This document shows, piece after piece, positions 1-18,617 of a stretch of DNA of 64,000 nucleotides. The translations under genes and the position numbers were made by a program. Numbering within the stretch: the first letter of the stretch is position 1; each line of letters opens with the position of its first letter. The notes under the pieces are model-generated. The model was not told the DNA's origin. It saw nothing but the letters and a program-made list of their open reading frames with translations, and did not search any database. Origin of the DNA: a virus (lineage: Duplodnaviria; Caudoviricetes); the IMG/VR virus record IMGVR_UViG_3300020471_000006, positions 138,520-202,519 of that record; one strand, written 5' to 3'.

Positions 1-522
1 GGTCCAGGATTAAGCGACTTCTGTGCATGTGGTGGTTGTCATGGTCATCAGTGTTGTCACTGGATTGATTCCTACTTTGCTTGTAGAACCAGAATAACAG
101 ATACTGGTAAATCTTGTTCTAGAAGTCAAAGCGAACACTATACAATTAATAGTAGTGATTGCATGGATCAGTGTGAAAAGTATGGTAAGTGGTATTGGAA
201 CGGTCTTACTCCTTATATTCATTATGATTGCAACCCTGGTTGTGGTAACTATTGCATGAAGAAAGACTACCATCCATATCCTGCTATGTACGGTGCTCGT
301 TATGGAGTTGTTAATGGTTACAGAAAGCATACTATGGCAACTTGTGGTAGAACTGAAACACTATGGTTGACAGGTAACAACGGTGGACTCTCAGGAGACT
401 GCTGGAGAAACGGTCCTCCTGGTTCTGGTGGTGTATCTGCTCAGGTGTTTGGTGGTGGTTGCTGCTGTTCTTCTGAGGGTGCTCATGGACTCGTAAGAAT
501 CACTCTATACTGTAAAACATAA
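1..522 (+). CDS. Cys/Gly-rich fibre-like protein, paralog 1 (5' truncated by window edge)
   Basis: Frame is open from base 1 (GPGLSDFCACGGCHGHQCCHW...) through the track ORF 163-522. Its C-terminus GPPGSGG...GGGCCC...GLVRIT matches the next two ORFs. Confidence 0.7.
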   Translation, partial: GPGLSDFCACGGCHGHQCCHWIDSYFACRTRITDTGKSCSRSQSEHYTINSSDCMDQCEKYGKWYWNGLTPYIHYDCNPGCGNYCMKKDYHPYPAMYGARYGVVNGYRKHTMATCGRTETLWLTGNNGGLSGDCWRNGPPGSGGVSAQVFGGGCCCSSEGAHGLVRITLYCKT

Positions 523-532
523 GGAAAGGCAA

Positions 533-1471
533 ATGAATTTACGAGAACTATTAGGAAGAGAATTTGCTTCGACAATACAAGAAACAGTTGCAGCAAATAC
601 TGCACTAGAAAGGAACCACGAAGGTAGAGTATTCTTATTCCATCCTTATTGTAACGAAGGTAACTGTGAAAGTAGTTACAGAGGTTACTGTCTTCAGTAT
701 TGGTGTGTTCCTTGTGGTACTACTCAAGCAACTTTCGAGTTGTGGGGTGGAGGCGGTTCAGGCGGTGGTGCTTGCTGCTGTCAACAAGGTATGCCTGGTG
801 GTGCTGGAGGATACGTAAGAAAGACTCTTGAGTATCCACAGATACAAGGTGGTTGGTGTTATTCACTCTGTGTTGCATCACCTAACTGCTGCTCAAGATG
901 CTGCTGTGGTATTAGAGGATGTAAAACATGGGTTAGTGGTTGTAACTTAAACAACCTCTGTGCTGATGGTGGACTTCCTGGTAAGACATGTTGCTGGGCT
1001 TTCTGGAACTCAACATATAGATGCCAAGATAAAGTTTCTTGGGGTGGATGTGGAGGATGGAGACTTCACGAAGATGGAGCATGCTCCTACGGTGGAGATG
1101 AGATGATTAAGGGAAGACCTGGTGCTTTCATCACTCACTGTAATGATAATAACTGTTGGACAAAAGGATTGATGCCTTATCCTGCTGGTCTTATCAATCA
1201 AAAAGGTGGATGGTTAACACAAAACTATCAAGGTAATGCATGTATACATCAATACATGTATTGCTCAGGTACGACTCCTTGGGCGTACAACATTAACTGT
1301 AACGGTGGTCCAGGACTTCCTGGAACTGGTGCTCCTTCTGCTACTGCGTGTGGTGGTGGATGCTGTTACGGATGGCGTGGTGGCGGTGGATTCATTAGAA
1401 TCACATACTGCTCATGCTGGTTACAGACAAGTTCACAGAACGAAGACTGTGCTTGGTACTACTTTAACTAA
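533..1471 (+). CDS. Cys/Gly-rich fibre-like protein, paralog 2
   Basis: FELWGGGGSGGG...GGAGGY glycine-rich motif typical of phage fibre/adhesin domains; about 34 Cys in 312 aa by hand count. Confidence 0.7.
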   Translation: MNLRELLGREFASTIQETVAANTALERNHEGRVFLFHPYCNEGNCESSYRGYCLQYWCVPCGTTQATFELWGGGGSGGGACCCQQGMPGGAGGYVRKTLEYPQIQGGWCYSLCVASPNCCSRCCCGIRGCKTWVSGCNLNNLCADGGLPGKTCCWAFWNSTYRCQDKVSWGGCGGWRLHEDGACSYGGDEMIKGRPGAFITHCNDNNCWTKGLMPYPAGLINQKGGWLTQNYQGNACIHQYMYCSGTTPWAYNINCNGGPGLPGTGAPSATACGGGCCYGWRGGGGFIRITYCSCWLQTSSQNEDCAWYYFN

Positions 1472-1494
1472 ATAAGAGGACAGAGGCACTATAG

Positions 1495-2400
1495 ATGGCT
1501 AATACAAATTTACGAGATCTATTAGGATTCGTTACATCAGATTCATTGGAGGGACTATCAGCACCCGATGCTACCACAAAACTAGCAAGACTACCGTCTG
1601 CTGGTTATTGTGTACAGTATATTCACGGTGCTTGTGGTTCAACTTGTAGTGAACATTCCACCAATTACAACTACTATAGGTATCCACTCTGGTGTATTCC
1701 TACTGGAGTCTGTGATGTTATCTTCGAAATCTGGGGTGCTGGAGGCGGTGGAGGATCATCCTGCTGCTGTTCTAGGGGCATGCCTTCTGGTTCTGGTGCA
1801 TATGCGTGGAAACGTATTACAGGTGCTGCGTCATCTCTTCAAGGATGTTCATATGATATTCATGTAGGTAGACCTGGTTGTGGTAGAACTGGATCACAGT
1901 GTGGTAATCAAGGTGGTACTAGTTACATCACTGGTTATGGTTTGAGTAACTTCTGTGCTAGAGGTGGACATGGAGGATGCTCATGCTGCTTCCTATGCTG
2001 CTGCACATGGAATGCTCAATCAATGGGTAGTTGCCCTTATGGTTGCTGTGCAACTTATCACGGTGCAGACGGTGGAGCATACGGTGTTCCTGGTGCTGCT
2101 TACGTATTCTGTTACAATAACCATTGCTGGAACAAACAACACGTTCCTTATCCTGCTGGATTAGTTAATGGTAAAGGTGGTTGGATGACTGCTGTTACTT
2201 GTGAAAACAGTGGATGTGGACATTGCATGCTACATTGGGCATCTGCTCAGTTAGGATGGGGTGGATCATTCTCTGATCACAACTATGTACCTGGTGTTGG
2301 TGGACCTTCTGGTTGGACTTGCAGTGGTGGTTGTTGTCGTGGAGAGAACGGTACTGCTGGTATGATCCGTATCAACTTCAAGTACGACGAAAACTTGTAA
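1495..2400 (+). CDS. Cys/Gly-rich fibre-like protein, paralog 3
   Basis: FEIWGAGGGGGSSCCC..GMPSGSGAY and PYPAGLVNGKGGW are shared with paralog 2; about 29 Cys in 301 aa by hand count. Confidence 0.7.
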   Translation: MANTNLRDLLGFVTSDSLEGLSAPDATTKLARLPSAGYCVQYIHGACGSTCSEHSTNYNYYRYPLWCIPTGVCDVIFEIWGAGGGGGSSCCCSRGMPSGSGAYAWKRITGAASSLQGCSYDIHVGRPGCGRTGSQCGNQGGTSYITGYGLSNFCARGGHGGCSCCFLCCCTWNAQSMGSCPYGCCATYHGADGGAYGVPGAAYVFCYNNHCWNKQHVPYPAGLVNGKGGWMTAVTCENSGCGHCMLHWASAQLGWGGSFSDHNYVPGVGGPSGWTCSGGCCRGENGTAGMIRINFKYDENL

Positions 2401-2404
2401 ATAA

Positions 2405-2412
2405 TATAAATA
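2405..2412 (+). promoter_or_regulatory. T4-type late promoter TATAAATA
   Basis: Exact TATAAATA 24 nt upstream of ORF 2437. Confidence 0.7.
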
Positions 2413-2436
2413 GGAAAGTATAGGTAATCAAAGGTT

Positions 2437-3291
2437 ATGGCTTTTACAAAAACATTCACATATAAAGTACCAGATGATTATTTGGCACAAACTGATTCTT
2501 TAGGAAAGACTGCTGAATGGACATATGATGGTCCAAGATGGTTGTTCGTTTTCGTTGATAAGGAAACTAACAAATGGATTCCTTCACAGTCATGTATCGG
2601 ATTGAATAGAGAGCCAACATCTGGTGACATCGAGCATGCAAATGTACGTGCTGGTATAGATGAAATCGCAGTCCAGATTGACATGGCTTCTCCTACTGAC
2701 GAAGAAGCAATCATTGGTTCTATCCTCTTCCCTAAAGATACTGGTAAAGCATCTGGTTATCCACAAAAGGATTACAAGATTTCTGGAGACGATACAGTAT
2801 ATTACTCACGTCCAGAACCAATCTCTCCTGACCATGCCTATGCAGCTGATGAGATCGAGTATGATCCAGCAGCAGGTGCTTGGAAGTCTCCTCTTCCTTG
2901 GTTCAAGCCTTGGATTTCAATGGAACAGCATAAAGCAGCAAGAGATACTCTAGTTGCAGATGCTCAAGCAAACCTAGACGCAGAAGCAACTGAGAATGGT
3001 GGTCAGGGTAACCTTACTGACCAGCAAAGAGCTGCTCTTACAGCATTTATTGGCGAATTAAACGGTATCTATACAAAGTTCCCTGCTGCTGATGGTTGGG
3101 GACCACACATGATTCCATTCCCTGATGATCCTCGTACTCCTTGGATTGATGGATATGACTATCGTGTTACAGACTACGAAGAGTTGATTGATGCTGCAAC
3201 AGGATTAACTAAGTCTTCTGATGTTCCTGCTGCTGATGTTGTTGAAGATGTACAACAACAAACACTTAGAGACGGCACAAAAGCTGATTAA
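2437..3291 (+). CDS. Putative tail fibre assembly chaperone-like protein
   Basis: C-terminal half (W..HKAARDTLVADA...QRAALTAFIGEL...FP..P) resembles phage tail assembly chaperone helices; lies directly after the fibre-like genes. Confidence 0.4.
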   Translation: MAFTKTFTYKVPDDYLAQTDSLGKTAEWTYDGPRWLFVFVDKETNKWIPSQSCIGLNREPTSGDIEHANVRAGIDEIAVQIDMASPTDEEAIIGSILFPKDTGKASGYPQKDYKISGDDTVYYSRPEPISPDHAYAADEIEYDPAAGAWKSPLPWFKPWISMEQHKAARDTLVADAQANLDAEATENGGQGNLTDQQRAALTAFIGELNGIYTKFPAADGWGPHMIPFPDDPRTPWIDGYDYRVTDYEELIDAATGLTKSSDVPAADVVEDVQQQTLRDGTKAD

Positions 3292-3310
3292 AAAGTTCGA
3301 GATGGATCGG

Positions 3311-3338
3311 AAGGACGGAGTAAAATCCGTCCTTTTTT
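3311..3338 (+). terminator. Rho-independent terminator
   Basis: AAGGACGGA-gtaaaa-TCCGTCCTT stem-loop followed by a T tract. Confidence 0.85.
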
Positions 3339-3343
3339 ATGCG

Positions 3344-3351
3344 TATAAATA
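3344..3351 (+). promoter_or_regulatory. Late promoter TATAAATA driving the modification island
   Basis: Exact motif just after the terminator, 48 nt upstream of ORF 3400. Confidence 0.7.
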
Positions 3352-3399
3352 GTAGCGAAGTTGAATAAATCCTTCTATATCATTCTATATTAAAATATT

Positions 3400-4581
3400 A
3401 TGAGACCCAAATCGTTTTTTATTAACGGTGGAGCTGGACGTGTACTATGCTCTATCCCTGCATTTGAAAAATATGCGGAAGACCATCCAGACGAAGACTT
3501 TGTAATAGTCTGCGAAGGTGGTACAGATTTCTATAAAGGTCATCCTATTCTACACAGGAAATGCTACGATCACTGGCATAAAGATCTTTTCGAAGACAAG
3601 ATTAAACACACAGATATAGTTACACCAGAACCATATAGAATCTGGCATTACTATAATCAAAAATGCAATCTCTCTCAAGCATTTGACATTGAGATTAATG
3701 GTTTAAAAGAACCAAGAGAACTTCCTGCACCAACAATCAAACTTTCCAGAGAAGAAGAAACAACTGGAATATTTGTTGTAGAAGAGGTTCGTCAAAGAAC
3801 TAAGAAAAAGAAAACCGTAGTCTTCCAACCTTTTGGTAGAGGAGTTCAGACTGCTGGTAATATTATTATGGATACTTCTGGTAGAAGTTTCGAGTTTAAT
3901 AATGTTGTTAGTATCATTAAGAAGTTGCAGAAAAAATATTCTGTTATTCTTCTATCAGAATTAACAATTGATTTTGAGAAAGAAGGGATGACTGATACTG
4001 TATCTCATCCTGTCAACAGACCATTGAGAGAACTTGCTGGTGCTATTAAAGCAGCAGATTTATTCATTGGATGTGATTCTGTTGGGCAACATATTGCTAA
4101 AGCATTTGGTAAACCAGCAGTTGTAGTTGTTGGGTCTACATTCAAAGAAAATATCAGTTACCCAGATGACAAGAAGTTTAGTGTTCTTGATATGGGTGAA
4201 GGTATGAGAGTATACGATCCTATTCGTATTACTATTGATGAGTATACTAACAGAGTCAATGATCGTATTATGGCGATGAATGATAAGGTTGAAGCTGTTA
4301 TCATGCAAGAGGTTGATAAACTGATGAAGAAGTATTATAAAGCTTCTGATAAAGTTATCAGACTTCCTGATGAGATGCAGCAGCAAGTAGATTATACTTT
4401 ACAGATGGAAGAGGACATGAAGAAGCAAATGGCTTCTGGAAAACAACCAACTGTTCCAACAGGTATGATGAAACAATCCAACAATCCAAATTTGATTCCA
4501 GCATTGATGGCAGATACTAAAGACATTAAACCACTAAGCAAAGTTCCTTCTGGATTTGCTGACTTAGCGAAAGGTAAATAA
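3400..4581 (+). CDS. GT9-family (ADP-heptose) glycosyltransferase-like protein
   Basis: GGAGRVLCSIPAF at the N-terminus and ELAGAIKAADLFIGCDSVGQHIAKAFGKPAVVVVG, matching the GT9 nucleotide-sugar-binding motif. Confidence 0.75.
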   Translation: MRPKSFFINGGAGRVLCSIPAFEKYAEDHPDEDFVIVCEGGTDFYKGHPILHRKCYDHWHKDLFEDKIKHTDIVTPEPYRIWHYYNQKCNLSQAFDIEINGLKEPRELPAPTIKLSREEETTGIFVVEEVRQRTKKKKTVVFQPFGRGVQTAGNIIMDTSGRSFEFNNVVSIIKKLQKKYSVILLSELTIDFEKEGMTDTVSHPVNRPLRELAGAIKAADLFIGCDSVGQHIAKAFGKPAVVVVGSTFKENISYPDDKKFSVLDMGEGMRVYDPIRITIDEYTNRVNDRIMAMNDKVEAVIMQEVDKLMKKYYKASDKVIRLPDEMQQQVDYTLQMEEDMKKQMASGKQPTVPTGMMKQSNNPNLIPALMADTKDIKPLSKVPSGFADLAKGK

Positions 4582-4582
4582 T

Positions 4583-6283
4583 ATGATTATTTTATGTGTT
4601 GCACGTGGTCACAACGGTAGTACCACACTAATGGTAGACGGTGAGATAGTCTTCTATCTCGAAGAAGAGAGGCTTAGTAGATTTAAGTATGATGGATCTC
4701 CTATGCTAGGTATACTTAAAGCATTTGAGTATGTTGATCATATTGATCATCTAGTTGTATGTCATACACATAGATCTGGTCCTAATTTAGATTGGACTGG
4801 TGAGCATATGTATGAGGGATTTGTAAGAAAGATTGCTAGAAAGAAATGGGAATTTGAAACAACTTATATTGATTTGAATCACCATGAGATGCATGCTGCA
4901 TGCGGTTTCTATAATTCTGGATTTGAATCTGCTGCATGTGTTATTGCAGATGGTGCTGGAAGTTTCTTAAATATGCAAGAAGTTCCAGATACTTTGTATG
5001 AATTTGAAACCATCTTCCATGCAGAGTATCCAGAAGAGTTTGAATCTGTATGGAAACATATCGGAACTAAAGCTGCTATTGGTTTCCATGAACCAGAACC
5101 TAATACATTCATTACTGAGTATCCTGGTCATACTAAAATGTATGAAGCAGTAACACAGTACTGTGGATTCCCTGCTATTGAAGCAGGTAAACTTATGGGT
5201 CTTGCACCATATGGTAAACCTAATGATGAACTACCATCATTCTTTAATGGAGAATGGGGTAATAGAGATTTGATTGTTCCAACATATCCTAATGCTGCTA
5301 CTATTAATGAAAGTAGATTCCAAATACTTAAAGATGATCGTAAACAGCATCAACAAGGTGAAGGTGAAAGAATAGATCATACAGATGTACAGAAGGATAT
5401 GGCATATAAGATTCAGGAAGAAACTTCTGAACGTATGTGTCAATTGATTGAGAAAGCAGTTGAGTTAACTGGTGAAAAGAACATTGTAGTCTGTGGTGGT
5501 TATGGTCTCAACTGTGTAGCAAACTATAAGTACTGGGATCGTTTCCCTGATCTAAACATCTATTGTGAACCTATCTCACATGATGGTGGTACATCTATCG
5601 GTGGAGCACTTTATAAGTTACATCAACTTACTGATAATGAAGAACCTAGAAAGCAAGCATCTGTTTATTATGGTCCTCAGTATGATCCTACTACTTATGA
5701 AGATGCTATTGCTGGACGTGATGTAACAGATACTGATTATGATTCAGTTGCTGCACTCATTCGTGGAGGTAATATTGTTACTATCTTCCAAGGAAGATCA
5801 GAAGGTGGTCCTCGTGCTTTAGGTAATAGATCTATTCTCTTTGATCCTACTGTTAAAGATGGTAAGGATATTGTTAATGGTGTTAAGCACAGAGAATGGT
5901 TCAGACCATTTGCATGTTCTATTAAGAAGGAACACGTTCATGAGTGGTTTGATTTGAAAGGAAGAGATGAAACACCACACATGATGTATGCTGTAGAGTG
6001 TCTTGAAGGTGTTGAGGAGAAGATTCCGTCAGTAATTCATGTTGATGGAACTTGTCGTATACAAACTGTAACTGAGGAACAAAATGAACATTACTATAAA
6101 CTCATTAATGCTTTCCATAAAATTACAGATGTACCTATACTCTTTAACACTAGTTTCAATCTTGGAGGCGAACCTCTTGTTGAAACTATCCATGATGCGT
6201 TAGAGACATTAGATAATAGTGAGATCGAGTACATGTATCTCCCAGAAATTCAAAAGCTAGTTAAGGTTCCTAACCGTGACTGA
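4583..6283 (+). CDS. O-carbamoyltransferase, CmcH/NodU/TobZ family (copy 1)
   Basis: EEERLSRFK, HHEMHAACGFY, GKLMGLAPYG, GGYGLNCVAN, GPRALGNRSIL, KHREWFRPFA, HVDGTCRIQTV, NTSFNLGGEP. Confidence 0.92.
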   Translation: MIILCVARGHNGSTTLMVDGEIVFYLEEERLSRFKYDGSPMLGILKAFEYVDHIDHLVVCHTHRSGPNLDWTGEHMYEGFVRKIARKKWEFETTYIDLNHHEMHAACGFYNSGFESAACVIADGAGSFLNMQEVPDTLYEFETIFHAEYPEEFESVWKHIGTKAAIGFHEPEPNTFITEYPGHTKMYEAVTQYCGFPAIEAGKLMGLAPYGKPNDELPSFFNGEWGNRDLIVPTYPNAATINESRFQILKDDRKQHQQGEGERIDHTDVQKDMAYKIQEETSERMCQLIEKAVELTGEKNIVVCGGYGLNCVANYKYWDRFPDLNIYCEPISHDGGTSIGGALYKLHQLTDNEEPRKQASVYYGPQYDPTTYEDAIAGRDVTDTDYDSVAALIRGGNIVTIFQGRSEGGPRALGNRSILFDPTVKDGKDIVNGVKHREWFRPFACSIKKEHVHEWFDLKGRDETPHMMYAVECLEGVEEKIPSVIHVDGTCRIQTVTEEQNEHYYKLINAFHKITDVPILFNTSFNLGGEPLVETIHDALETLDNSEIEYMYLPEIQKLVKVPNRD

Positions 6284-6917
6284 TCATTTTGAAGATATCT
6301 TAGTTATTGATGATGTAATCAGTCCAAGATATCAGGAGCATCTTAGACAATCCGTTATGGATTCTAAGTTCCCATGGTACTTCAATCGTGATATAACAGC
6401 ACCTTTGTGGTATTGGGAACAGAATAAACTTAATGATTCTAAATTAGAAGTTGAGGATGCTCTATTTACTGGGTTTATGCACATCCTTTGGGGGAGAGAG
6501 GGTAAGGAATCTGAGTCGTATGATATCTTCGTTCCTCTCTTGTACTCGATGGAAGAAAAGATCAATATGACTATCAAGGATCTTGTTCAATTAAGATTGG
6601 GTCTCTTTACATTGAACAAGAACAAACACCCTCATCATGTTCCACATGTTGATTATCAGGGTGATGGGTTGAAGTACACAGCAATCTATTACCTGAATGA
6701 TAGTGATGGAGATACACATTTCTTTAATGAATTTTTAGATCCTAGTATCAAAAGGTTCATTAATGGGTATGACCCCAGTCTCTTTACCGTTGCTAAAACT
6801 GTTAAACCTAAATCAGGTAGATTAGTTTTATTTGATGGTCGAAGATATCATGCCTCTCGCTATCCAGAGAGCACAACAGAACGTATTGTATTGAATATAA
6901 ATTTTAACCCTGTTTAA
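6276..6917 (+). CDS. 2OG-Fe(II) oxygenase
   Basis: PHVD...TAIYYLNDSDGDT...LVLFDGRRYHAS...R; HxD...H facial triad. Confidence 0.85.
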   Translation: MTDHFEDILVIDDVISPRYQEHLRQSVMDSKFPWYFNRDITAPLWYWEQNKLNDSKLEVEDALFTGFMHILWGREGKESESYDIFVPLLYSMEEKINMTIKDLVQLRLGLFTLNKNKHPHHVPHVDYQGDGLKYTAIYYLNDSDGDTHFFNEFLDPSIKRFINGYDPSLFTVAKTVKPKSGRLVLFDGRRYHASRYPESTTERIVLNINFNPV

Positions 6918-6919
6918 TT

Positions 6920-8629
6920 ATGTGGATACTTGGTGTTAATAGATCTCATGATGCTGCTATTTGTCTCATGAAAGACAATGATGTAGTGCTGTCCATACAG
7001 GAAGAGAGATTAACACATGTCAAATATGACAGAGAAGTATTCAATGCTCTGGATAAAGTAGCTGAAATTACTAAAGAAATTGACTTATGTGCTTATACAC
7101 ATTTGTACAATACTAAATGTGATTTTGGACCTTACTTTAAATACATTAAACGTATAGGGATTAAAGTCAAGAGGTATGTAGAAGCAAAGGATTATCACCA
7201 TTCTCTACATGCCTCTTGTGCGTACTATAATTCAGGATTTGATAAAGCAGGTATACTTGTAATAGATGGTGCTGGTGCTGACCATGAGTGGGGTAAGGAG
7301 AATGAAAGTATATTCTATTTTGATCAAAATCCCAATGCAGTAACATGCCTAAGTCAAAAGATTATTGGGTATTCAAATCAAAAGGTTGAAGGAGCACCAC
7401 CATTTGTACATCCTACAAAAAATATTGGTGCTGGATTTGTTTACTCTGGTATCACAGAATATCTGGGATGGGATAGTTTAGAGTGTGGTAAAACTATGGG
7501 TCTTTCATCATATGGAGAACCCAATGATAGAATAAAACAAATGATATCTGAGGATGGTGGAAATGAAAATATATTTACCTTAACAGATTTCAATGAACAT
7601 AAGAATGTGAATACTGTTGTTCGTCCTTATGATTACATAGCATATTCTAAGGATGAAGATGATAAGTTCCAAAGACATGCAGATCTAGCATATAGATTAC
7701 AAAAAGATTTTGAAGAGTATGTGTATCAAAGAATTATGGATACACATAGATTAAGTGGATGTAATGATATCATCTTTACTGGTGGATGTGCTTTGAATTG
7801 TGTTGGTAACTATAGAATACTACAAAGATTACCAGAACATATTAATCTATATGTTGAACCTATGTCTAGTGACTGTGGTACTGCTATGGGAGCAGCATAT
7901 ATTACTTACGCAAGGGAATGCCCTAAGCAGTATAGACGTAAAAGAATAAGACCATTATCACATCTTTATTTTGGTCAACCTATTAAGTATGATTATGAAT
8001 TAAAAGATAATGAATTTAAGGTATGTGAGGTTACACCTCAGAGGGTTGCTGAACTTATTAGTGACGGTAATGTAGTTGCTATCTGTCAAGGTAGATCTGA
8101 GAATGGTCCTCGTGCTTTAGGTAATCGTTCTATACTATATGATCCCCGTGCTGTAGACGGGAAAGATATTGTTAATAAAGTAAAGAAGAGAGAACATTGG
8201 AGACCGTTTGCTGGCACAGTACTTGCTGATCATGCACATGAATGGTTTGATATGGATAGGTTGCATGAATCACCACATATGATGTATGCTGTAAATGTAC
8301 TAAAATCAATGATAGAGAAGATACCATGTATCACTCATGTCGATGGTACATGTAGAATTCAAACTCTAACAAAAGATCAGAATCCAAACTACTATAAATT
8401 AATAGAGGCATTCTATGAATTAACAGGTGTGCCGATATTATTCAACACATCTTTTAATTTGGCTGGTGATACTATAGTGGAAACTATAGATGATGCTTTA
8501 CTTACTATGAGAGAAAGTGAAATCTGTTATCTTTACTTACCTGAGAAAGCAGAACTACTATTCATACCTGATGCATCAGAACCATCTATCAAAAGATTAT
8601 CATACAAAGATTGTAATTCACTACTATGA
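6920..8629 (+). CDS. O-carbamoyltransferase, CmcH/NodU/TobZ family (copy 2)
   Basis: HDAAICL, QEERLT, HHSLHASCAYY, GKTMGLSSYG, GGCALNCVGN, GPRALGNRSIL, KKREHWRPFAG, NTSFNLAG. Confidence 0.92.
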   Translation: MWILGVNRSHDAAICLMKDNDVVLSIQEERLTHVKYDREVFNALDKVAEITKEIDLCAYTHLYNTKCDFGPYFKYIKRIGIKVKRYVEAKDYHHSLHASCAYYNSGFDKAGILVIDGAGADHEWGKENESIFYFDQNPNAVTCLSQKIIGYSNQKVEGAPPFVHPTKNIGAGFVYSGITEYLGWDSLECGKTMGLSSYGEPNDRIKQMISEDGGNENIFTLTDFNEHKNVNTVVRPYDYIAYSKDEDDKFQRHADLAYRLQKDFEEYVYQRIMDTHRLSGCNDIIFTGGCALNCVGNYRILQRLPEHINLYVEPMSSDCGTAMGAAYITYARECPKQYRRKRIRPLSHLYFGQPIKYDYELKDNEFKVCEVTPQRVAELISDGNVVAICQGRSENGPRALGNRSILYDPRAVDGKDIVNKVKKREHWRPFAGTVLADHAHEWFDMDRLHESPHMMYAVNVLKSMIEKIPCITHVDGTCRIQTLTKDQNPNYYKLIEAFYELTGVPILFNTSFNLAGDTIVETIDDALLTMRESEICYLYLPEKAELLFIPDASEPSIKRLSYKDCNSLL

Positions 8630-9264
8630 ACTTAACAGATTTAATATTCGAGAAAAAAGACTTCCTTCCTAAAGATGATTGTGAGTCATGGATTGATTGG
8701 TTTTGGTTGAACCAACAATATCATGATAAGGGGGATTCTGGAAATGAACAAAAACATAAGAAAGCTATACAAGTAGATCCTATTGTTGGTGGAGATTTCT
8801 GGTGTCAAATTGCTATAGAAACTGATAGAGCTATCAATGCAATGTATGAATGGGGTGCAAAAGATAAACTTCTTTGGAGAGCACCTTTAGTTTCTTATGA
8901 TCATTCTATGAGATGCTACCCAAAAAAAGATGGGTGGTTTAAAGATCATATTGATCTATCTCCAACAGATCCATTACTATTGTCAAGAGTATATGCTATG
9001 ATAATATATCTTGATGATGTTGAAGAAGGTGGTGAAACAGAGTTTTCATTTTTAGATTATAAAGTTAAACCAGAACAAGGAAAACTTTTAATGTTCCCTT
9101 GTAATCAGATGTATCCATATAGAGAAAACAAACCAATGAGTGGTCCAAAGCATATTGTCACTGCTTTCTTTTGTTCTGATCTACCTGCTCCACATTATGT
9201 AAATAGTCAGCATCCTAATCAACAACATCATAACTTATATTCAAAACACATGGGAATCAAATGA
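8626..9264 (+). CDS. 2OG-Fe(II) oxygenase (prolyl-hydroxylase-like), distal His apparently replaced by Tyr
   Basis: FKDHID, MIIYLDDVEEGGETEF, LLMFPCNQMYPYRE (usually YPHxG). Confidence 0.75.
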   Translation: MNLTDLIFEKKDFLPKDDCESWIDWFWLNQQYHDKGDSGNEQKHKKAIQVDPIVGGDFWCQIAIETDRAINAMYEWGAKDKLLWRAPLVSYDHSMRCYPKKDGWFKDHIDLSPTDPLLLSRVYAMIIYLDDVEEGGETEFSFLDYKVKPEQGKLLMFPCNQMYPYRENKPMSGPKHIVTAFFCSDLPAPHYVNSQHPNQQHHNLYSKHMGIK

Positions 9265-9656
9265 TTATTTGGGTTAATGGTTGCTTTGATGTTCTCCATA
9301 GAGGACATTTCGAATTGCTAAATTATGCTAGGTCTTTAGGATCTATGCTTATAGTGGGTATCGATACTGACCGAAAGGTCAGAGCAGACAAAGGACCAGA
9401 TAGACCCATCTATCCATTAGAGGATAGGAAGTATCAATTAAGTTCTTTGAAAGCAGTGGACGTAATCCATACGTTTGATTCAAGACAAGAGCTTGAAGAA
9501 TTGATAAAAATCATAAACCCTGATATACTAGTGGTAGGTTCTGATTGGAAAAACGGAGACGTAGTAGGACGTGAGTATGCAAAGAGAGTTGAGTTCTTCG
9601 ATAGGATCGGAGAATATTCCACAACAAAAACAATACAAGGTCATCGTTATAGGTGA
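9261..9656 (+). CDS. Heptose-1-phosphate adenylyltransferase (HldE/RfaE domain II, cytidyltransferase fold)
   Basis: NGCFDVLHRGH, GIDTDRKVR..KGPDRP, VGSDW, STT. Confidence 0.85.
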   Translation: MIIWVNGCFDVLHRGHFELLNYARSLGSMLIVGIDTDRKVRADKGPDRPIYPLEDRKYQLSSLKAVDVIHTFDSRQELEELIKIINPDILVVGSDWKNGDVVGREYAKRVEFFDRIGEYSTTKTIQGHRYR

Positions 9657-10410
9657 GACTTGTATAGACAAATACGTTTATGGCAGGTGTACAAGGTTAA
9701 GTCCTGAAGCACCTGTACCAGTAATGGAATACATTCGTACTGAAACAGCAGACGGAATGGCAAGTAATGTAAGACAAAACCTCTTGTCATTTGGTGTGGA
9801 TGTATATTTGATGACCAATGAATTAAAACCAGTCAAGACTAGATTTGTAGATGAAAGATCTAATCAACAACTGATGAGATTGGATGAGAATGATGAGGTT
9901 GCTGACTATGGATGGGAGTTACCAACTGGTGATACTTATCCTACTGGTACACCACATACAGAACCTATTGGTGAACCATTTGATGCCATGATCATATCTG
10001 ATTATGACAAAGGATTTTTATCAGAAGAAAAGATCTTTGAATTGGTAGAAGCATTCAATGGTCCTGTATTCATAGACAGTAAGAAAAGTAAACTACCTAA
10101 GAAAGGATGCTTCATCAAGATCAATGATTTAGAAAACTCTAAGTTAAAAGGTATATACAGAAATAAGATTGTTACTAAAGGTTCTGCTGGTGCTGAGTAT
10201 AAAGGAAAGATATATCCAGGTGAAGCAGTTCCTTGTTTTGATGTAGCAGGTGCAGGAGATACATTCCTTTGTGCTTTGGTTTACTTTTACTTAGAGTATG
10301 GTAAAATAGAAAAAGCAATTCCTTATGCTAATAAGGCTGCTGCTATAGCAGTTCAAAATCATGGTACATACGTTCTTTCTGGAGATGATATAGATGATAT
10401 ACGTAGTTGA
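9577..10410 (+). CDS. Heptose-7-phosphate kinase (HldE/RfaE domain I, PfkB family)
   Basis: VIVIGETCIDKYVYG...RLSPEAPVPV, ISDYDKG, DVAGAGDTF. Start is ATG 9577 or GTG 9571. Confidence 0.85.
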   Translation: MQRELSSSIGSENIPQQKQYKVIVIGETCIDKYVYGRCTRLSPEAPVPVMEYIRTETADGMASNVRQNLLSFGVDVYLMTNELKPVKTRFVDERSNQQLMRLDENDEVADYGWELPTGDTYPTGTPHTEPIGEPFDAMIISDYDKGFLSEEKIFELVEAFNGPVFIDSKKSKLPKKGCFIKINDLENSKLKGIYRNKIVTKGSAGAEYKGKIYPGEAVPCFDVAGAGDTFLCALVYFYLEYGKIEKAIPYANKAAAIAVQNHGTYVLSGDDIDDIRS

Positions 10411-10714
10411 TATAGATGGTACTATAAGTAATTGTCCTACAGGACAATACGAAAAATCCGAACCAATGATGGATCGGATAGAGAAGTTAAATAAAATATA
10501 CGACGAAGGTAACAGTATTATTTTTTATACTGCCAGAGGTATGGGTAGATTTGAAGGTGATGGGATTAAAGCACATGAAGCATTCTATGATCTAACCTTC
10601 AATCAACTCAAGTCATGGGGGTGTAAGTTTGATGAGTTACACATGGGTAAATTTCATGCACATTATTTCATAGATGATAAAGGAGTGAATTCAGATGATT
10701 TCTTCAATACTTGA
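10394..10714 (+). CDS. HAD-family phosphatase (candidate GmhB-like step)
   Basis: VVDIDGT motif I, YTARG, GK, FIDDK. Confidence 0.7.
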   Translation: MIYVVDIDGTISNCPTGQYEKSEPMMDRIEKLNKIYDEGNSIIFYTARGMGRFEGDGIKAHEAFYDLTFNQLKSWGCKFDELHMGKFHAHYFIDDKGVNSDDFFNT

Positions 10715-11243
10715 ACCCGAAGATCTTCTTGATCCGTTTACTGTTGATTGGATCAATAAAGAACTTTATGAATATCCTGTATCATATGGACACAGAGCTT
10801 GTGATGATGGAGATGATTTTTTCGGAAGAATATTCTTTTGGGGTGAATGGCGTGAACAGTTCCATCAGAAGAACCTACCAGCCAGTGTAGATTACTTAAC
10901 TAATTTTGTAGCCACATGGTTACCATCTGCAACTAATAAAGAATTTGTAGATCTAAGAAGAATTGTATTGAATGCTGCATGTCCTAATCAACGTGGAGGT
11001 GTGCATTGGGATTCTAATGACCCATCAGTCTGGACTGTGCTATACTATATTACTGATAGTTCTGGTGATACCAACATATACGATGGAGATTTTGAAGAAG
11101 GTGTTGAGGCAAGAAACCTTGTCCACACATGTAAATACAAGCAAGGAAAGTTTGTTGCTTTTCCTTCTACCTATATTCATAATGCGGAGGCCCCAGAATC
11201 AGGATGGAGAATGAGTTTAGCGTGGGGTATTCAACTCCGATGA
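10695..11243 (+). CDS. 2OG-Fe(II) oxygenase
   Basis: VHWD, TVLYYI, GDT, FVAFPSTYIHNA...R. Confidence 0.75.
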   Translation: MISSILEPEDLLDPFTVDWINKELYEYPVSYGHRACDDGDDFFGRIFFWGEWREQFHQKNLPASVDYLTNFVATWLPSATNKEFVDLRRIVLNAACPNQRGGVHWDSNDPSVWTVLYYITDSSGDTNIYDGDFEEGVEARNLVHTCKYKQGKFVAFPSTYIHNAEAPESGWRMSLAWGIQLR

Positions 11244-11581
11244 AGATTGTACAGAAAGGTTGGGGATATGAGAAGTGGATCTGCAATTCTGAAAAGTATT
11301 GTGGGAAGCTTCTATTCTTTAATGCAGGTAAGAAGTGTTCATACCATTATCACAAGATTAAAGATGAAACATTCTATGTTCAGAGTGGTGAACTAAAGAT
11401 GACCTATGGTTATAGAGATGATTTTATTGATGCAGACACAATCATATTAAAACCAGGAGATAAGTTTTACATACCTCCTGGTCTTAGACATATGATGGAA
11501 GGCATCACAGACGTAGAACTATTCGAATTTTCTACAGAGCATTTTGAGGAGGACTCGTACCGTGTTCTAAGGGGTGATTAA
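11240..11581 (+). CDS. Cupin-fold sugar isomerase-like protein
   Basis: KGWGYEKW, SYHYHKIKDETFYVQSGE, IPPGLRHMM. Start placed at the ATGA overlap at 11240. Confidence 0.75.
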   Translation: MKIVQKGWGYEKWICNSEKYCGKLLFFNAGKKCSYHYHKIKDETFYVQSGELKMTYGYRDDFIDADTIILKPGDKFYIPPGLRHMMEGITDVELFEFSTEHFEEDSYRVLRGD

Positions 11582-12356
11582 TATAGTCCTCTACATTTGT
11601 AAATTCATACTTATTAGCCCAGAACATATCTGCACAGGTATAGAATTGATATTTTCCTTGTAAGTGTACAGGGAAATCTATCTCTTCTATCTGTGCATTA
11701 TATTTGTCTGCAATTATTTCAGCAATATCTCTGAAGGAATGTGGGTGTCCTGTACCAAGATCATATACTCCTGATTCCAATTGGTTGTTCAGAACTAAGT
11801 CAACAACATCACCAACGTATATAAAGTCTCTAACCATCTTCTCAGAGTTCTTAAAGATTTTAATTTTACCTGTCATCTTTGCTTCCTCAGTAAATTTACT
11901 GATAGGACTGCGTTGGTTTCCTTTATGCTCTTCACCTTCTCCATATACATTGAAGAATCTGAATCCTTGAATATTTTCAAATAGATCTATATTGTCTTGT
12001 ACCCAGTAGTCTACTTGAACTTTTGATATAGCATAGTAATTCAAAGGATTGATATTACCTGCTGAGTTTCCATAGACAGATGCAGACGAGGCATACTTAA
12101 CTGGTATACCTAGTTCTATTGCTTTCTTAAATAGTCTTATTGAAAACTCAGTATTGTAAATTGTGATCTTTCCAATATCAGTTTCTGTTGTACTTGATAT
12201 TGCTCCCATGTGAATGATTTCATCGATATCATCCCAGACAGGTAGGTTGTCTAGTAACTGAAAAGCGTTTCCCATTTCAAACCCGATGAATTTTCCATCA
12301 AGTTGATCGGCAAACTTCTTTCCGATGAACCCATTGCATCCTGTAAGAATTTTCAT
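11532..12356 (-). CDS. hldD: ADP-L-glycero-D-manno-heptose-6-epimerase
   Basis: TGCNGFIG, HMGAISSTTETD, YASSASVYG, PLNYYAISK, FRFFNVYG.GE.HKG, RDFIYVGD, YQFYTCAD. Confidence 0.85.
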   Translation of the reverse strand: MKILTGCNGFIGKKFADQLDGKFIGFEMGNAFQLLDNLPVWDDIDEIIHMGAISSTTETDIGKITIYNTEFSIRLFKKAIELGIPVKYASSASVYGNSAGNINPLNYYAISKVQVDYWVQDNIDLFENIQGFRFFNVYGEGEEHKGNQRSPISKFTEEAKMTGKIKIFKNSEKMVRDFIYVGDVVDLVLNNQLESGVYDLGTGHPHSFRDIAEIIADKYNAQIEEIDFPVHLQGKYQFYTCADMFWANKYEFTNVEDYINHPLEHGTSPPQNAL

Positions 12357-12363
12357 ATAAATA
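12356..12363 (+). promoter_or_regulatory. Late promoter TATAAATA overlapping the hldD start codon on the opposite strand
   Basis: Exact motif 31 nt upstream of ORF 12395. Confidence 0.7.
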
Positions 12364-12394
12364 ACTAACGATTGTAATATAAACCCCCAAAGTT

Positions 12395-13525
12395 ATGGCT
12401 ACTTATGGTGCTCTAGCAGCTATAGTCCCACCAGTCAAGACTAGGACAGTTCTTCATGAGGCTCCAGCAGCAAAGCTGGTAGAGGCAAAAATTTCAATAT
12501 CTCACCAAAGTCCATACCCAGTAAGAGTAAGGATCGGAGTTTCAAGTGGTGCGTTGTTGGCTTTCGCTCCATCGAACTACATCCTATATGACATGGAGAT
12601 TCAGTCTGGAGAGACTTATGAAACTCAAACTATGTACTATGCCAATGGGCAAAGTCTGATTGTATATAGTGATTACGAAACTACCTCTTTCTTGGTACAT
12701 GGAGAAGTTGTTGATAACCCAGTTGGTTCTGGATTCTTAAATTCTGCTCTTGTAACTACTGCTAGAACTAATACTAGTATCTACACAGTACCTACTGGTG
12801 AAGACGTAGAACTTTCGATCTTCGTTTCTAACCAGAGTCACACTCCTTCTAGATTCAGAATAGGAATCTTAGAGGATGGACAAACAGAATTACAGACTTC
12901 AAACTACTTAAATTATAACACGAAACTATTTCCTAGAACATTCTATCAGAGAACTGACATTAAAGCAACAGGAGATCAACAGATTATTGTGTGGGCTGAG
13001 GATGCCAACATAATGAGTTTTGCTGTATATGGTAAGTTTAAGTATAACATTATTGCAACTGACTTCAGTGTTAATGGGAACTTTACTGTTGTTGGAGACT
13101 CTGATTTACAACAAAATGTTGGTGTTGGTGGAACTCTTGACGTTACAGGAGCTGCAACTTTTCTTGATGCTGTCACTGTAGACGGTGAACTAGGAGCCAA
13201 AAGTGGTATCAAAGGTGGTGCTGATTTAACTACTCCTACCTTTAGTGTTTCTGCTGCTGGTGCTATTGCTGGTGCTAGTGCTTCTGTTACATCTGCTCTT
13301 GCTTGTGGTACTACCTTCGGGGTTGGTGGTACTAAGTTCACAGTAGATGCAGATGGTAACACAGTTGTAGATGGAACCTTAGATGTACACAGTGGTGTTA
13401 CTGCTGATCTAAGTCTTCTAAATAATAAAATAACGAATCTAGGTAGAGCTACTGCGCCAGGGGATGCAATGTCCAAGACTGCTGTAGACTCCCAAGTAAC
13501 TGCATTAGCAATTGCACTTTCATAA
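12395..13525 (+). CDS. Fibre-like virion structural protein
   Basis: Duplicated N-terminal domain; VGGTLDVTG-type beta repeats; NKITNLG.ATAPGDA..K stalk motif; ALAIALS C-terminus. Confidence 0.6.
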   Translation: MATYGALAAIVPPVKTRTVLHEAPAAKLVEAKISISHQSPYPVRVRIGVSSGALLAFAPSNYILYDMEIQSGETYETQTMYYANGQSLIVYSDYETTSFLVHGEVVDNPVGSGFLNSALVTTARTNTSIYTVPTGEDVELSIFVSNQSHTPSRFRIGILEDGQTELQTSNYLNYNTKLFPRTFYQRTDIKATGDQQIIVWAEDANIMSFAVYGKFKYNIIATDFSVNGNFTVVGDSDLQQNVGVGGTLDVTGAATFLDAVTVDGELGAKSGIKGGADLTTPTFSVSAAGAIAGASASVTSALACGTTFGVGGTKFTVDADGNTVVDGTLDVHSGVTADLSLLNNKITNLGRATAPGDAMSKTAVDSQVTALAIALS

Positions 13526-13548
13526 AAAAGATCGAGGGAAATTAAAAA

Positions 13549-16500
13549 ATGGCTAAAAGGCAAATAAGAGACTACGTTTTCTCACCTGGTCTTTCTGGTG
13601 CTGGAACATTGAAGGTTTTGGATAAAGTCAGTCCTGACCAGATTCTGCTGATCACAAACGTTACAGCAAACGTTGTACTTTATAACTTTGCTGATAACTC
13701 TCAACAGATAGCAGCAGCGTTCACGGAAACATCTGATGGATCTGATCCAGACTTCCCTTTCGCTAGTACGTTATCAAACGGTGTAACTACCATTACATTC
13801 CTGTTTGATACTTCAACATATTCTAATACTGATAACTTAATCATCTTTATTGAAGGTGATGAAGTTAAGATGAGACCATACGACTTCGGTACAGACGCTA
13901 TTGAACGTATGCGTTTTGCTGAGCCTCTTAGTATGCTTGATGCTGACTTTGAGTATGGTATTCAGCCAACTAAATGGCAGACAATTGACCTAGTACGTGG
14001 ATATCCATCTTCCTTCGAGTTTCCAGGTGCTGATGTTGCTGTTAGTTCAATTACAACCGATGCTTCTACAAACAGTGGTGGTATAGGTCCATCTCTTATT
14101 ACAGTAGATACTGAATTGGAACATGGATTCTCTGTTGGTGATCCTGTTACACTTAAGGGTGTTAATGATGGTGTAGAGGGATTCGCTAAGGCAGAAGGTT
14201 CATTCATTATTAGTGATGTTCCAAGTACATCTCAGTTTACTTTCTATGCAAAGGGTAAGGTAGGTCTATCACCTGCTACTAGTCTATTATCTGGATTTGT
14301 TCAGTTAAGGAAAGCAGGTTTCTATACTGGTGCTTCATTAGGAAGCCCTACTCTAGCAGTAGAATCTAATGGTGCTTCTGGTCAAATATCAACTAGAGGT
14401 AATACTGCTGCTGGTGAAAATAGAATTGGTATCAATGCTCCAGGATCACCTCCTCCAATTGGTGCTCCTCTTTCTGCAGCTGGATTACAAGCTGGTACAC
14501 AGATAACTGGTTATGTGGGTTCTGATACCGCTATTAATATTACAACATCATTCACAGCACCTGTTTCTACAATCGTTCTTAACGATACAACAGGAATTGA
14601 TATTGGTGCTGCTCTAGATAACGGTTCTGGAACTACAATTTTTGTTACAAACATCGAAACAAATACTATATCTCTATCTGCACCATATACAGCAGACAGA
14701 ACTGGTAACAGTTTCATCTCTACACCAACATCACCAACTACACTTAACTTTGGTAATGGTACTGGAGCATCATTTGATATACAAAGAACTTCTGGTGCAT
14801 ACACTGGTGTTGATATTAAACAGACAGTAATGTATGATAATGTTCCAGTAGATACGTATAGTGGACAAGGAACCAATGCTACCTTTAACGTTGAAAGGGA
14901 TGGTACTGCTGGTTCAGCATCTTATGCGAATGTGTTTGTATCTAACAGTGGTAGTACATACTCTGCTACAGAAACAATTGTTATCTTAGGTACTAACTTA
15001 GGTGGTGCTACACCAACTAACGACTTGACTATTACAATTGATTCTGTTGATGTTAACGGTCAAATTCAAAGTATTACTCCTAGTGGTACAGCAGCAGAAG
15101 GAACTCCTTACGCTGGAACTGGATATGCTGTTGGGGAACAAATTGTTATCTATGGTAATGTTCTTGGTGGACAGTCACCAGCTCATGACTTAAACATCTT
15201 CATTAAAACAGTTGGTGCTGCTGGTGAAATTCTTACCTTTACTCCTATTGGTCAAGGTATCTTCTCTACTCAGGAATATAATAACGTAACTGGTGCTGCT
15301 GGATCTGGTGTTGGTATCAACTCATCATTCAGAGTTACTAGAACAGGTTCTGGTAGTAAGATAGCACAGATTGATGATGTCGAAGTTGGTGGAATAATAG
15401 AATTTGAAGATTTCTTCTCAATTCAAATAACTGATACTGCAACAAGTACAGTTGAAACATTTACTTATGATGCTGCTACTAATGATGGTATAACAGAAGT
15501 AAGGAACGGACTTATTAATGCTATCAATGATCTTTCTACTGGTTCTGCTTTCGTAAGAGCAAGTGCTGGATCTCCTTCTCAGACTGGTCTTGCAAAAGTA
15601 CAATTGACTGCTATAGTTGCTGGTCAAGCATACTCTGTAGTTGCAACTACTACTGAAGGTGGAGGTGGTACTGCTGATGATCAAACCATTTCTCATGCAA
15701 ACTTTATTCCCAATGAGAATACAACAACCACACCAACATATAGTGCTGTTATAATCAACCCTGGTTCTAGTTACCAACCTAATGATACTGTTATCATTGA
15801 TGGTGGAGTCTTAGGTGGTGAAACTGCTACTAATGACTTAACTGTTACTGTAACCAGTGTTGGTGCATCTGGTGAGATCACTGCATTCAGTATTGGTGGT
15901 ACAGCAGCAGACGGTAATGCAACATTCGAGTCACTTACTGCAAACAATATAGCATTTAATGCAACATTCCTACCTAAAATTTCTGGTGGTAACTATGCTC
16001 CTGAAATTGCTAATGGTGGTAGTGGATATCAAATTGGTTATCAATTCTTAATCGGTGGTCAAGAACTTGGTGGTGATCCAACCATTAACGATATGACTAT
16101 CACTGTCACAGACATTGATTATCTAACTGGAGAGATTACTGCTATCACTGCATCTGGTACTCCAGTATCAGGAGAGAGTATTGCATTCTATCCATCTGTT
16201 TCTTTATCTGCTACAACTAGTGGTATTATTAATAATGGTACTAATATAACTTACTCTGCTATTGCAAGAATAAGTGCAACATTCGCTAACAATCATGGAT
16301 TGGTTCCAGGAAATACAATCCTTGCTGCTATTGATTCTACTGGTAATAACCATGATCTTGCTTCAGGACCATTCTTTATTGAAGAAGTTCCTAACTTAAA
16401 CAAGTTTGTTTATACTACAAGAACTACTGGTACTATTGATACTAATACTGCTCTTACTGGTGAACTCTATACTAGACCAGATTGTTTCTATACACACAGA

Positions 16501-18609: not shown

Positions 18610-18617
18610 GAGGTCAT

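Follow-up and report, generated by a model that had tools for sequence, protein, structure and literature searches.

A candidate heptose synthesis, transfer and carbamoylation kit within the tail-fibre module of T4-like marine phages

What do the genes catalogued as lipopolysaccharide (LPS) genes in marine T4-like phages make, and onto what is the product transferred? The question is raised here by an island of sugar-related genes at positions 3400-12356 of the window, the 64,000-nucleotide stretch of DNA that we analysed, which makes up the final 64 kb of an IMG/VR virus record that is complete at 202.5 kb (IMGVR_UViG_3300020471_000006). The island combines a GT9-fold glycosyltransferase, two O-carbamoyltransferases, 2-oxoglutarate (2OG)-dependent oxygenases and a set of proteins resembling those that make ADP-heptose. 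Our analysis indicates that the synthesis, transfer and carbamoylation of a heptose is the likely business of the island, and points tentatively to a protein of the adjacent tail-fibre module as the acceptor. The virus is a T4-like cyanomyovirus, with gp13, gp14 and a sheath-stabiliser gene identified by PHROGs downstream of the island region. Its closest isolates are S-CAM1 and S-CAM3, at a protein identity of ~70%, and because its psbA shares 99% identity with Prochlorococcus genes, the host genus is probably Prochlorococcus.

The island itself is not new. It corresponds to the cyanomyovirus gene clusters T4-GC 302-308, which are already catalogued under the label 'LPS genes'; T4-GC 304, 305, 307 and 308 are listed among these by Sullivan et al. 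2010, where the published reading is LPS genes or possibly stuffer DNA and no function is assigned (PMC3037559). Alteration of the host cell surface has been proposed for such genes (PMC3037559, PMC2984593, PMC7378029). The isolates carrying the set are P-SSM2, S-SSM7, S-CAM1, S-CAM3, P-SSM5, S-SSM6a and Sf-FS3, and the window belongs with them, sharing an identical gene order with S-CAM1, S-SSM7 and P-SSM2 at 50-70% protein identity. Relative to the catalogued genes, the window version adds a second carbamoyltransferase and three oxygenases. What we contribute is an argument on the island's target, the description of a GT9 branch with an Asp-to-Arg replacement, and a proposed substitution of a cupin for GmhA.

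The coherence of the island is most apparent when its relatives are compared. Among 80 related IMG/VR loci, compared by tblastn with the window's proteins, a carbamoyltransferase gene follows the GT9-like gene in 76, and the other four contigs end within ~300 nt of the latter. In cyanomyovirus-type loci these two genes are followed in fixed order by the adenylyltransferase, the kinase, the HAD phosphatase, the cupin and a reverse-strand epimerase; the second carbamoyltransferase and the oxygenases are variable. The same association is found in a much more distant phage that reads TAG as Gln (Logan contig L092), where the GT9-like protein is 31% identical and the gene order is sulfotransferase, GT9-like transferase, a small open reading frame (ORF), PfkB kinase, nucleotidyltransferase, cupin, a 102-aa ORF and epimerase. 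Here the 102-aa ORF occupies the position of the HAD phosphatase, and the sulfotransferase takes the carbamoyltransferase's place. Since the association is kept at 31% identity, the link between the transferase and the sugar module has survived very deep divergence, and an O-sulfating enzyme can stand in for an O-carbamoylating one. In this recoded phage the module adjoins ClpP. The preliminary description of this DNA, made from its letters, had viewed the genes as one functional unit that makes, transfers and carbamoylates an ADP-heptose-type sugar, and both the adjacency in 76 of 80 loci and the linkage in the recoded phage bear this out.

The individual gene identities named in that description were all recovered at their positions by Pfam and NCBIfam searches, the third oxygenase weakly (Table 1). 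Both carbamoyltransferases exceed the cut-off for Carbam_trans_N (67-95 bits) and for Carbam_trans_C (198-200 bits), and their best sequence relatives in the PDB are TobZ, NovN and GdmN. The HldE-like kinase and adenylyltransferase are encoded as two separate genes; the HldE models are their best NCBIfam matches but at a sub-equivalog level (128.5 versus 345 bits for the kinase and 114.7 versus 181.5 bits for the adenylyltransferase). The HAD phosphatase, with its DxDGT motif, matches the capsule-biosynthesis phosphatase model TIGR01689 at 44 bits against a cut-off of 162, and no GmhB model was matched. The HldD-like protein is 36% identical to Escherichia coli HldD (E 3e-41) and keeps the GxxGxxG motif, the Ser/Tyr/Lys residues and the second Lys (HKG); it has a deletion within the NADP-binding region, and its TIGR02197 score of 197.9 bits lies under the equivalog cut-off of 274.6. 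Indeed, every NCBIfam match in the island falls below the equivalog cut-off.

The plus-strand genes form the tightly coupled run behind a late promoter that had been described. The HldD-like gene does not belong to this run: it lies on the minus strand, as it does in all cyanomyovirus-type loci, is convergent with the cupin gene and overlaps the 3' end of that gene by 50 nt. No promoter was recognised for the HldD-like gene, and its start codon overlaps the TATAAATA motif of the tail-fibre gene (12356-12363). In S-SM2, P-TIM68 and the recoded phage, the HldD homologue is co-directional with the other module genes.

The pathway implied by these genes appears to lack its first enzyme. GmhA, the SIS-fold sedoheptulose-7-phosphate isomerase, gives no TIGR00441 match anywhere in the complete 202.5-kb genome. 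The cupin, which has a full HxH...E...H metal motif, accompanies the module in Kyanoviridae-type loci, in S-SM2 and P-TIM68 and in the recoded phage, and it is more conserved than the transferase, with 60-70% identity among the best-scoring of 1667 homologs. The best PDB relatives of its profile are D-lyxose/D-mannose isomerases, an L-ribose isomerase and a phosphomannose isomerase. An AlphaFold2 (AF2) model of the cupin (pLDDT 91) gives a similar picture, with the top Foldseek matches being D-lyxose isomerase (with bound fructose or mannose), the CapF cupin and ~110-aa phosphomannose isomerases of Thermococcus. The conversion of sedoheptulose-7-phosphate to D-glycero-D-manno-heptose-7-phosphate is the seven-carbon analogue of that of fructose-6-phosphate to mannose-6-phosphate, and a cupin of the phosphomannose-isomerase type is therefore a reasonable replacement for GmhA. 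We suggest that the conserved cupin probably fills this role; a CapF-like epimerase role is also possible.

The transferase is a divergent GT9-fold protein. It scores 20.5 bits against PF01075, under the cut-off of 22; weak matches to this Pfam family occur in 47 of 88 diverse members of the phage family (best E 1e-8), and a PDB sequence search gave nothing useful, so that only profile and fold searches worked. An AF2 model built on the 88 sequences (pLDDT 91) is matched well in VIA-align only by GT9 structures: Z 23.9 for 3tov (a Veillonella GT9 protein), 21.2 for WaaF, 20.2 for TibC and 18.9 for WaaC. Overall, GT9 structures score Z 18.5-23.9 versus ≤12.9 for other GT-B families, and Foldseek agrees. 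The donor motif D226-S-x-G-x-H231, in which D226 and H231 are invariant in the 88 sequences, lines up with the D(S/T)GxxH motif seen in WaaF and WaaC, and the linkage to an HldE/HldD-type module suggests ADP-heptose as the donor. The N-terminal acceptor domain contains a new set of family-specific invariants, E77-P78-Y79; this E-P-Y motif and a GGxGR loop are conserved across phages with different hosts, including Vibrio. No Cys column is invariant or nearly so in the 88-sequence alignment. We conclude that the transferase is a GT9-fold relative that lies outside both known subfamilies, and that the fold cannot tell the acceptor. The family comprises 3899 proteins at E up to 0.001 (90% clustering), or 429 clusters at 50%, and looks viral, judging by taxon records that are available for a minority of members in the nearest Atlas clusters. 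PnsB1, a subunit of the chloroplast NDH complex (7wff_a, 9grx_1; Z 19-20), resembles the phage protein as closely as WaaC does, which serves as a caution that proteins with a GT9 fold may have non-enzymatic functions.

The genes flanking the island supply candidate acceptors. Fibre-like genes had been noted on both sides, and PHROGs agrees, placing them in phrog_4205, phrog_9740, phrog_11338 and phrog_5838. The upstream Cys/Gly-rich paralogs (~10% Cys, 16-18% Gly) may be fibre-tip or adhesin-like proteins of the gp38-like type and, as such, may be acceptors. Among isolates, phrog_4205-type homologs are found only in the island-bearing S-CAM1 and S-CAM3, and homologs of the 376-aa fibre-like protein likewise occur only in island-bearing phages. 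In keeping with the predicted co-occurrence of the island with Cys-rich and fibre genes, the three flanking structural families are confined to island-bearing phages among 50,697 phage records, a pattern that is confounded by relatedness. The phrog_9740 protein precedes the GT9-like gene in most related loci; its jumbo-phage homologs carry a weak PF16778 Phage_tail_APC match, and N- and C-terminal motifs are common to both. A complex prediction pairing the GT9-like core with this chaperone-like protein scored 0.01, which speaks neither for nor against such a pairing. In S-CAM1, S-CAM3, S-SSM7 and cyanomyovirus-type IMG/VR loci, the island is bounded by fibre genes on one side and gp13 on the other; in P-SSM2 its neighbours on both sides are tail-fibre genes.

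The position of the transferase gene next to tail genes extends beyond the cyanomyoviruses. In a jumbo lineage (contigs L067 and G001 among others, 78-126 kb and 22-35% complete by CheckV, including a ~104-kb contig at 30%, implying genomes of ~350 kb), the order is tail fibre, Gly-rich protein, two chaperone-like proteins, GT9-like transferase, a 272-aa ORF, carbamoyltransferase and MTS methyltransferase. A 415-aa HldE-like ORF lies ~17 kb away in three of five of these contigs, and psbA was found on none of those sampled. Cys/Gly-rich proteins also occur at the matching place in this lineage (L067:6854-8436). A further T4-like phage shows the succession 562-aa protein, tail-chaperone-like protein, GT9-like transferase, DUF6165 protein and gp13. 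In 78-kb Vibrio phages, a shorter GT9-like homolog adjoins a 1756-aa tail protein and there are no sugar genes, an arrangement in keeping with a host able to provide its own ADP-heptose. Altogether, at least four phage lineages have the GT9-like gene in a tail or fibre setting, and in three of them it comes after a fibre-chaperone-like gene.

A T4-type late motif heads the island. As had been described, a motif of the TATAAATA/NATAAATA type lies upstream of the first gene. Relatives have a late-type motif there as well, and NATAAATA is the published late motif of cyanomyoviruses (PMC2984593). All seven copies of TATAAATA in the window lie on the plus strand, six of them just upstream of an ORF, and the genome-wide counts are 21 on the plus strand and one on the minus strand. 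The motif in the window follows a terminator-like hairpin that ends the upstream fibre-gene transcript; relatives have a GC-rich hairpin and T-run at the same site, followed by a TAAATA-type motif. The promoter motif thus predicts late expression of the island. Scans of the island for sigma-70 promoter and terminator consensus sequences gave chance-level results. Metatranscriptome contigs matching window positions 1-20000 come from four runs in two studies, and in three runs they span the island and its flanks; these contigs carry no strand, level or timing, and DNA carry-over is possible. Island orthologs are listed without an expression class in the supplements of PMC7238727. An exact-match search of IMG/VR for a P-SSM2 locus found nothing.

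The likely hosts offer little that the transferase could act on in the classical way. In three complete Prochlorococcus and two marine Synechococcus genomes, PF01075 has no match, and HldE and HldD equivalogs are absent, the best scores being 112 bits for HldD and 44 bits for the HldE kinase, where the phage's own proteins reach 198 and 128. Marine Synechococcus LPS is reported to contain neither heptose nor 3-deoxy-D-manno-octulosonate (Kdo) (PMC4515613). Taken together, these findings imply that the phage brings a sugar new to the cell and that the classical GT9 acceptor is missing there. In addition, no GT2 or GT4 gene is present in the phage genome, no hydrophobic segment was found in any island protein, and neither the island nor the genome encodes a flippase, a ligase, a priming transferase, another glycosyltransferase or a membrane protein. 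A single cytoplasmic transfer is therefore the simplest reading. P4H-type oxygenases are mostly protein hydroxylases and lean toward a protein acceptor, though they are optional here. The published virion proteomes have no bearing on the acceptor, as the phages concerned (S-SM1, S-PM2 and Syn9) are absent from the match lists for the island genes.

Our best explanation for the whole, which we put forward tentatively, is a self-sufficient soluble glycosylation kit with a protein of the phage fibre module as its likeliest acceptor. The scheme is built on the gene identities, folds, linkage, position, late motif and absence of the pathway from the five genomes; its catalytic steps, donor, timing and acceptor are all proposed from these. 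The cupin would isomerise sedoheptulose-7-phosphate to D-glycero-D-manno-heptose-7-phosphate in place of the missing GmhA. The PfkB kinase would then form the 1,7-bisphosphate, the minimal HAD phosphatase would take off the 7-phosphate, the small nucleotidyltransferase would generate ADP-heptose, and the HldD-like epimerase would convert it to the L-glycero form. The divergent GT9-fold enzyme would transfer a single heptose, which the TobZ/NodU-type enzymes would O-carbamoylate, with the P4H-type oxygenases as variable extras. The kit would be driven by its own late-type promoter, and the acceptor would be a protein of the adjacent tail-fibre module (an adhesin, fibre or assembly intermediate) instead of the host LPS core. 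We rank a virion fibre protein over the host envelope as acceptor, while regarding it as a plausible candidate that falls short of being probable. The most specific form of the proposal is a little more doubtful: that marine phages of the T4-like type first O-heptosylate their own tail-fibre or adhesin proteins and afterwards carbamoylate them, through a virus-specific GT9 branch with Arg for Asp, a phage-made donor and a cupin in place of GmhA.

Several observations weigh against a fibre acceptor, and a number of them would fit the remodelling of the host surface that the literature on these 'LPS genes' has favoured. Here a carbamoyl-heptose would be placed on a host envelope glycan or lipid-linked intermediate, where it would prevent superinfection or stop progeny from adhering to infected cells or debris. 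LPS-type heptosyltransferases match the transferase model at least as well as protein heptosyltransferases do, and LPS heptosyltransferases I-IV are among the best fold matches. In a MAFFT alignment, which is short and has 15-19% identity yet is consistent with the strand-loop-helix of the model, a nearly invariant Arg (R14, in the Gly-rich GGxGR loop) lies where WaaC and WaaF have Asp13. Asp13 is the catalytic base in WaaC; given the replacement, the acceptor chemistry or catalysis itself may differ from that of known heptosyltransferases, and the loop and its Arg would suit an anionic acceptor (phosphate or uronate, possibly lipid-linked). In S-SM2 and P-TIM68, a five-gene sugar module lies near hli genes, together with a transketolase and a number of other glycosyltransferases. 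The GT9-like gene is missing from these clusters, which look like polysaccharide synthesis and are away from fibre genes. The P-SSM2 copy of the island has two sigma-70-like promoters upstream (TTGACT, 17 nt, TATAAT; 11/12 each; L003:11871-11970), which overlap a TATAAAT late-like motif; no such promoter lies upstream of the window's island. Going by P-SSM2, expression may not be strictly late, and timing may differ between phages. The preliminary description had judged remodelling of the host LPS the poorer fit to late timing, and the host genomes and reported heptose-free LPS (PMC4515613) weaken the idea of an LPS-core acceptor: the picocyanobacteria that we checked have no GT9 or heptose pathway and, going by the published chemistry, no heptose/Kdo inner core to extend. 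The lack of membrane-associated glycan machinery in the island and genome, the conservation of the acceptor-domain motifs in phages whose hosts differ in their envelopes, and the conserved late motif and fibre-module position also argue against this alternative, which we regard as rather unlikely though a serious competitor.

The remaining alternatives concern what the position of the island and the fold of the transferase mean. The island might be cargo of an insertion hotspot, making a carbamoylated heptose derivative for some other acceptor, soluble or otherwise, with the fibre region serving as a permissive site only. The fibre region, or host-recognition cluster, is a hypervariable hotspot that collects accessory genes (PMC7029224), and because unrelated genes also gather there, position alone is weak evidence of function. 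The S-SSM7 island contains denV and a tryptophan halogenase, the window's island has a GC content (0.33-0.39) lower than its fibre-gene flanks (0.40-0.46), in the manner of acquired cargo, and the sugar module is mobile between genome regions, as in S-SM2 and P-TIM68. Mere cargo is nonetheless improbable in our judgement: in unrelated phages the GT9-like gene alone, without sugar genes, still adjoins tail-fibre or chaperone genes, and its strict adjacency to the carbamoyltransferase gene and its Tfa-like upstream neighbour recur across lineages. Less probable still is that the GT9-fold protein is no transferase at all, serving instead as an assembly factor or structural component of the fibre that binds nucleotide sugars, comparable to the non-enzymatic GT9-fold proteins PnsB1 and BimC. 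The Arg at the Asp13 site throughout the family would suit such a role, as would the presence of PnsB1 (Z 19.8) and the 'inactive' BimC among the close fold matches. The invariance of the donor motif, the tight linkage with enzymes that tailor sugars and with a dedicated pathway for the sugar nucleotide, and the presence of other conserved acidic residues (E77, E119 and D158) that could serve as the base all speak for an enzyme. Modification of DNA was also considered, with the carbamoyltransferases and the GT-B enzyme acting on hydroxymethylated bases. T4 beta-glucosyltransferase is likewise a GT-B enzyme. A phage TobZ-family enzyme carbamoylates 5-hydroxymethylcytosine (5hmC) in DNA, but the published DNA-modifying clade co-occurs with a hydroxymethylase gene, and the contigs in which carbamoyltransferases lie beside glycosyltransferases are unmodified (PMC8670742). 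The complete genome has no PF00303 homolog (thymidylate synthase/dCMP hydroxymethylase), and a late motif and fibre position are ill-suited to replication-stage enzymes, so that we set this idea aside as highly unlikely.

Table 1. Features of the island and its flanks in the window (coordinates are window positions)
Feature	Coordinates	Strand	Basis and remarks
Three tandem Cys/Gly-rich paralogs	1-522 (partial), 533-1471, 1495-2400	+	phrog_4205 E 1e-23 to 5e-86, weak PF21722 Gly_rich_2
Tail-fibre-assembly-chaperone-like protein (phrog_9740)	2437-3291	+	phrog_9740 E 1e-53
Terminator-like hairpin and U-run, ending the upstream fibre-gene transcript	3310-3336	+	dG -18.8 kcal/mol, z -3.4, 0/200 shuffles as good
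T4-type late promoter motif TATAAATA	3344-3351	+	49 nt upstream of GT9-like start codon
GT9-fold glycosyltransferase, divergent (T4-GC 302, phrog_8954)	3400-4581	+	GT-B core of ~310 aa and 80-aa helical/disordered tail
O-carbamoyltransferase 1, TobZ/NodU/NovN family (T4-GC 303)	4583-6283	+	PF16861 200 bits, PF02543 67 bits; PDB TobZ E 6e-48
2OG-Fe(II) oxygenase 1, P4H-type, variable add-on	6276-6917	+	PF13640 32 bits; closer relatives only
O-carbamoyltransferase 2, variable add-on	6920-8629	+	Both Pfam domains; paralog of the first, 38% identical
2OG-Fe(II) oxygenase 2, P4H-type	8626-9264	+	PF13640 37.6 bits
Heptose-1-phosphate adenylyltransferase-like, HldE domain II type (T4-GC 304)	9261-9656	+	TIGR02199 114.7 bits, PF01467
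PfkB-type heptose-7-phosphate kinase-like, HldE domain I type (T4-GC 305)	9571-10410	+	TIGR02198 128.5 bits, PF00294
Minimal HAD phosphatase, 106 aa, DIDGT motif (T4-GC 306), proposed GmhB analogue	10394-10714	+	TIGR01689 E 2e-11
Third 2OG oxygenase-like ORF, weak, variable add-on	10695-11243	+	PF13640 20.6 bits versus cut-off 27; subset of relatives
Metal-binding cupin, 125 aa (T4-GC 307), proposed sedoheptulose-7-phosphate isomerase	11204-11581	+	Cupin_2 and MannoseP_isomer matches
HldD-like ADP-heptose 6-epimerase, SDR (T4-GC 308)	11532-12356	-	TIGR02197 197.9 bits
Second TATAAATA late motif, for the downstream tail-fibre-like gene	12356-12363	+	Motif scan
Tail-fibre-like protein, 376 aa, Thr/Ser/Gly-rich	12395-13525	+	phrog_11338 'tail fiber protein', E 4e-95
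Virion structural protein, 1686 aa, Thr/Ser/Gly-rich	13549-18609	+	phrog_5838 'virion structural protein', E 0

Some further observations concern annotation and the accessory genes. In the RefSeq records of S-CAM1, S-SSM7 and P-SSM2 (L001-L003), the HAD protein is named 'phosphoheptose isomerase' and the cupin 'cysteine dioxygenase'. By folds and motifs these names look swapped or wrong, the HAD protein being a phosphatase and the cupin the likelier isomerase. A contig labelled as part of a Bradyrhizobium ivorense metagenome-assembled genome (CALRKN020000004.1) has a psbA 91% identical to that of the phage, and is probably a cyanophage genome that was binned wrongly. Collagen-type glycosylation of hydroxylysine by way of the oxygenases found no support, as neither the island proteins nor the flanking ORFs as far as position 19427 contain collagen-like G-X-Y runs.

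The island has partial counterparts among known systems. It resembles the enterobacterial ADP-L-glycero-beta-D-manno-heptose pathway with WaaC and WaaF in having an HldE-like kinase and adenylyltransferase, an HldD homolog, and a transferase with a GT9 fold (Z 19-21) and a D(S/T)GxxH motif. Unlike that pathway, the phage version has a cupin in place of GmhA, a 106-aa HAD protein in place of GmhB, and HldE halves that are separate and in reverse order; the transferase has Arg at the Asp13 site, and the likely host has no Kdo-heptose core. TibC and Aah are soluble enzymes that O-heptosylate Ser residues of adhesins with single heptoses in the cytoplasm, and they are encoded next to their adhesin substrate. 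The parallel with these enzymes that had been drawn for the phage transferase holds at the level of the fold (TibC, Z 20.2) and no further. Residues 1-315 of the phage model align to TibC residues 96-395, so that the N-terminal extension of ~95 aa found in this bacterial autotransporter heptosyltransferase (BAHT) group is missing; so is its conserved Cys cluster (iron finger), and LPS enzymes match at least as well. The likeness to TibC and Aah is thus an analogy and not membership.

Carbamoylated heptose has a cellular precedent in the 7-O-carbamoyl-heptose of the Pseudomonas aeruginosa LPS core, which involves a NodU-family carbamoyltransferase and GT9 heptosyltransferases. That system acts on a Kdo-lipid A core, whereas the genes described here belong to a phage whose likely host has none. 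Precedents for particle decoration by viral glycosyltransferases encoded beside structural genes include mycobacteriophage capsid and tail glycosylation and the glycan machinery of chloroviruses and mimivirus. Mycobacteriophages draw their sugar donors from the host, and their sugars and enzyme families are not those of the island; decoration in our phage is a proposal. We know of no heptose or carbamoyl decoration of a virion. The phage 5hmC carbamoyltransferase (PMC8670742) also belongs to the TobZ/NodU family, but it is tied to a dCMP hydroxymethylase gene and the island's enzymes are tied to sugar genes.

Two points of enzymology stand whatever the acceptor: the cupin that probably replaces GmhA, and the GT9 branch without the canonical catalytic Asp. 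The island genes are abundant in ocean viromes and have carried the label 'LPS genes' without a function for 20 years. Cultured phages with the island exist (S-CAM1, S-CAM3, S-SSM7 and P-SSM2), which makes the question directly testable. If a fibre or adhesin protein is the acceptor, major phages of Prochlorococcus and Synechococcus would rely on a glycan of their own making for adsorption and host range, and virion glycosylation would extend from mycobacteriophages to T4-like phages. It would also be the first heptosylated virion, adding a new receptor-binding or shielding layer to phage-host recognition in the ocean.

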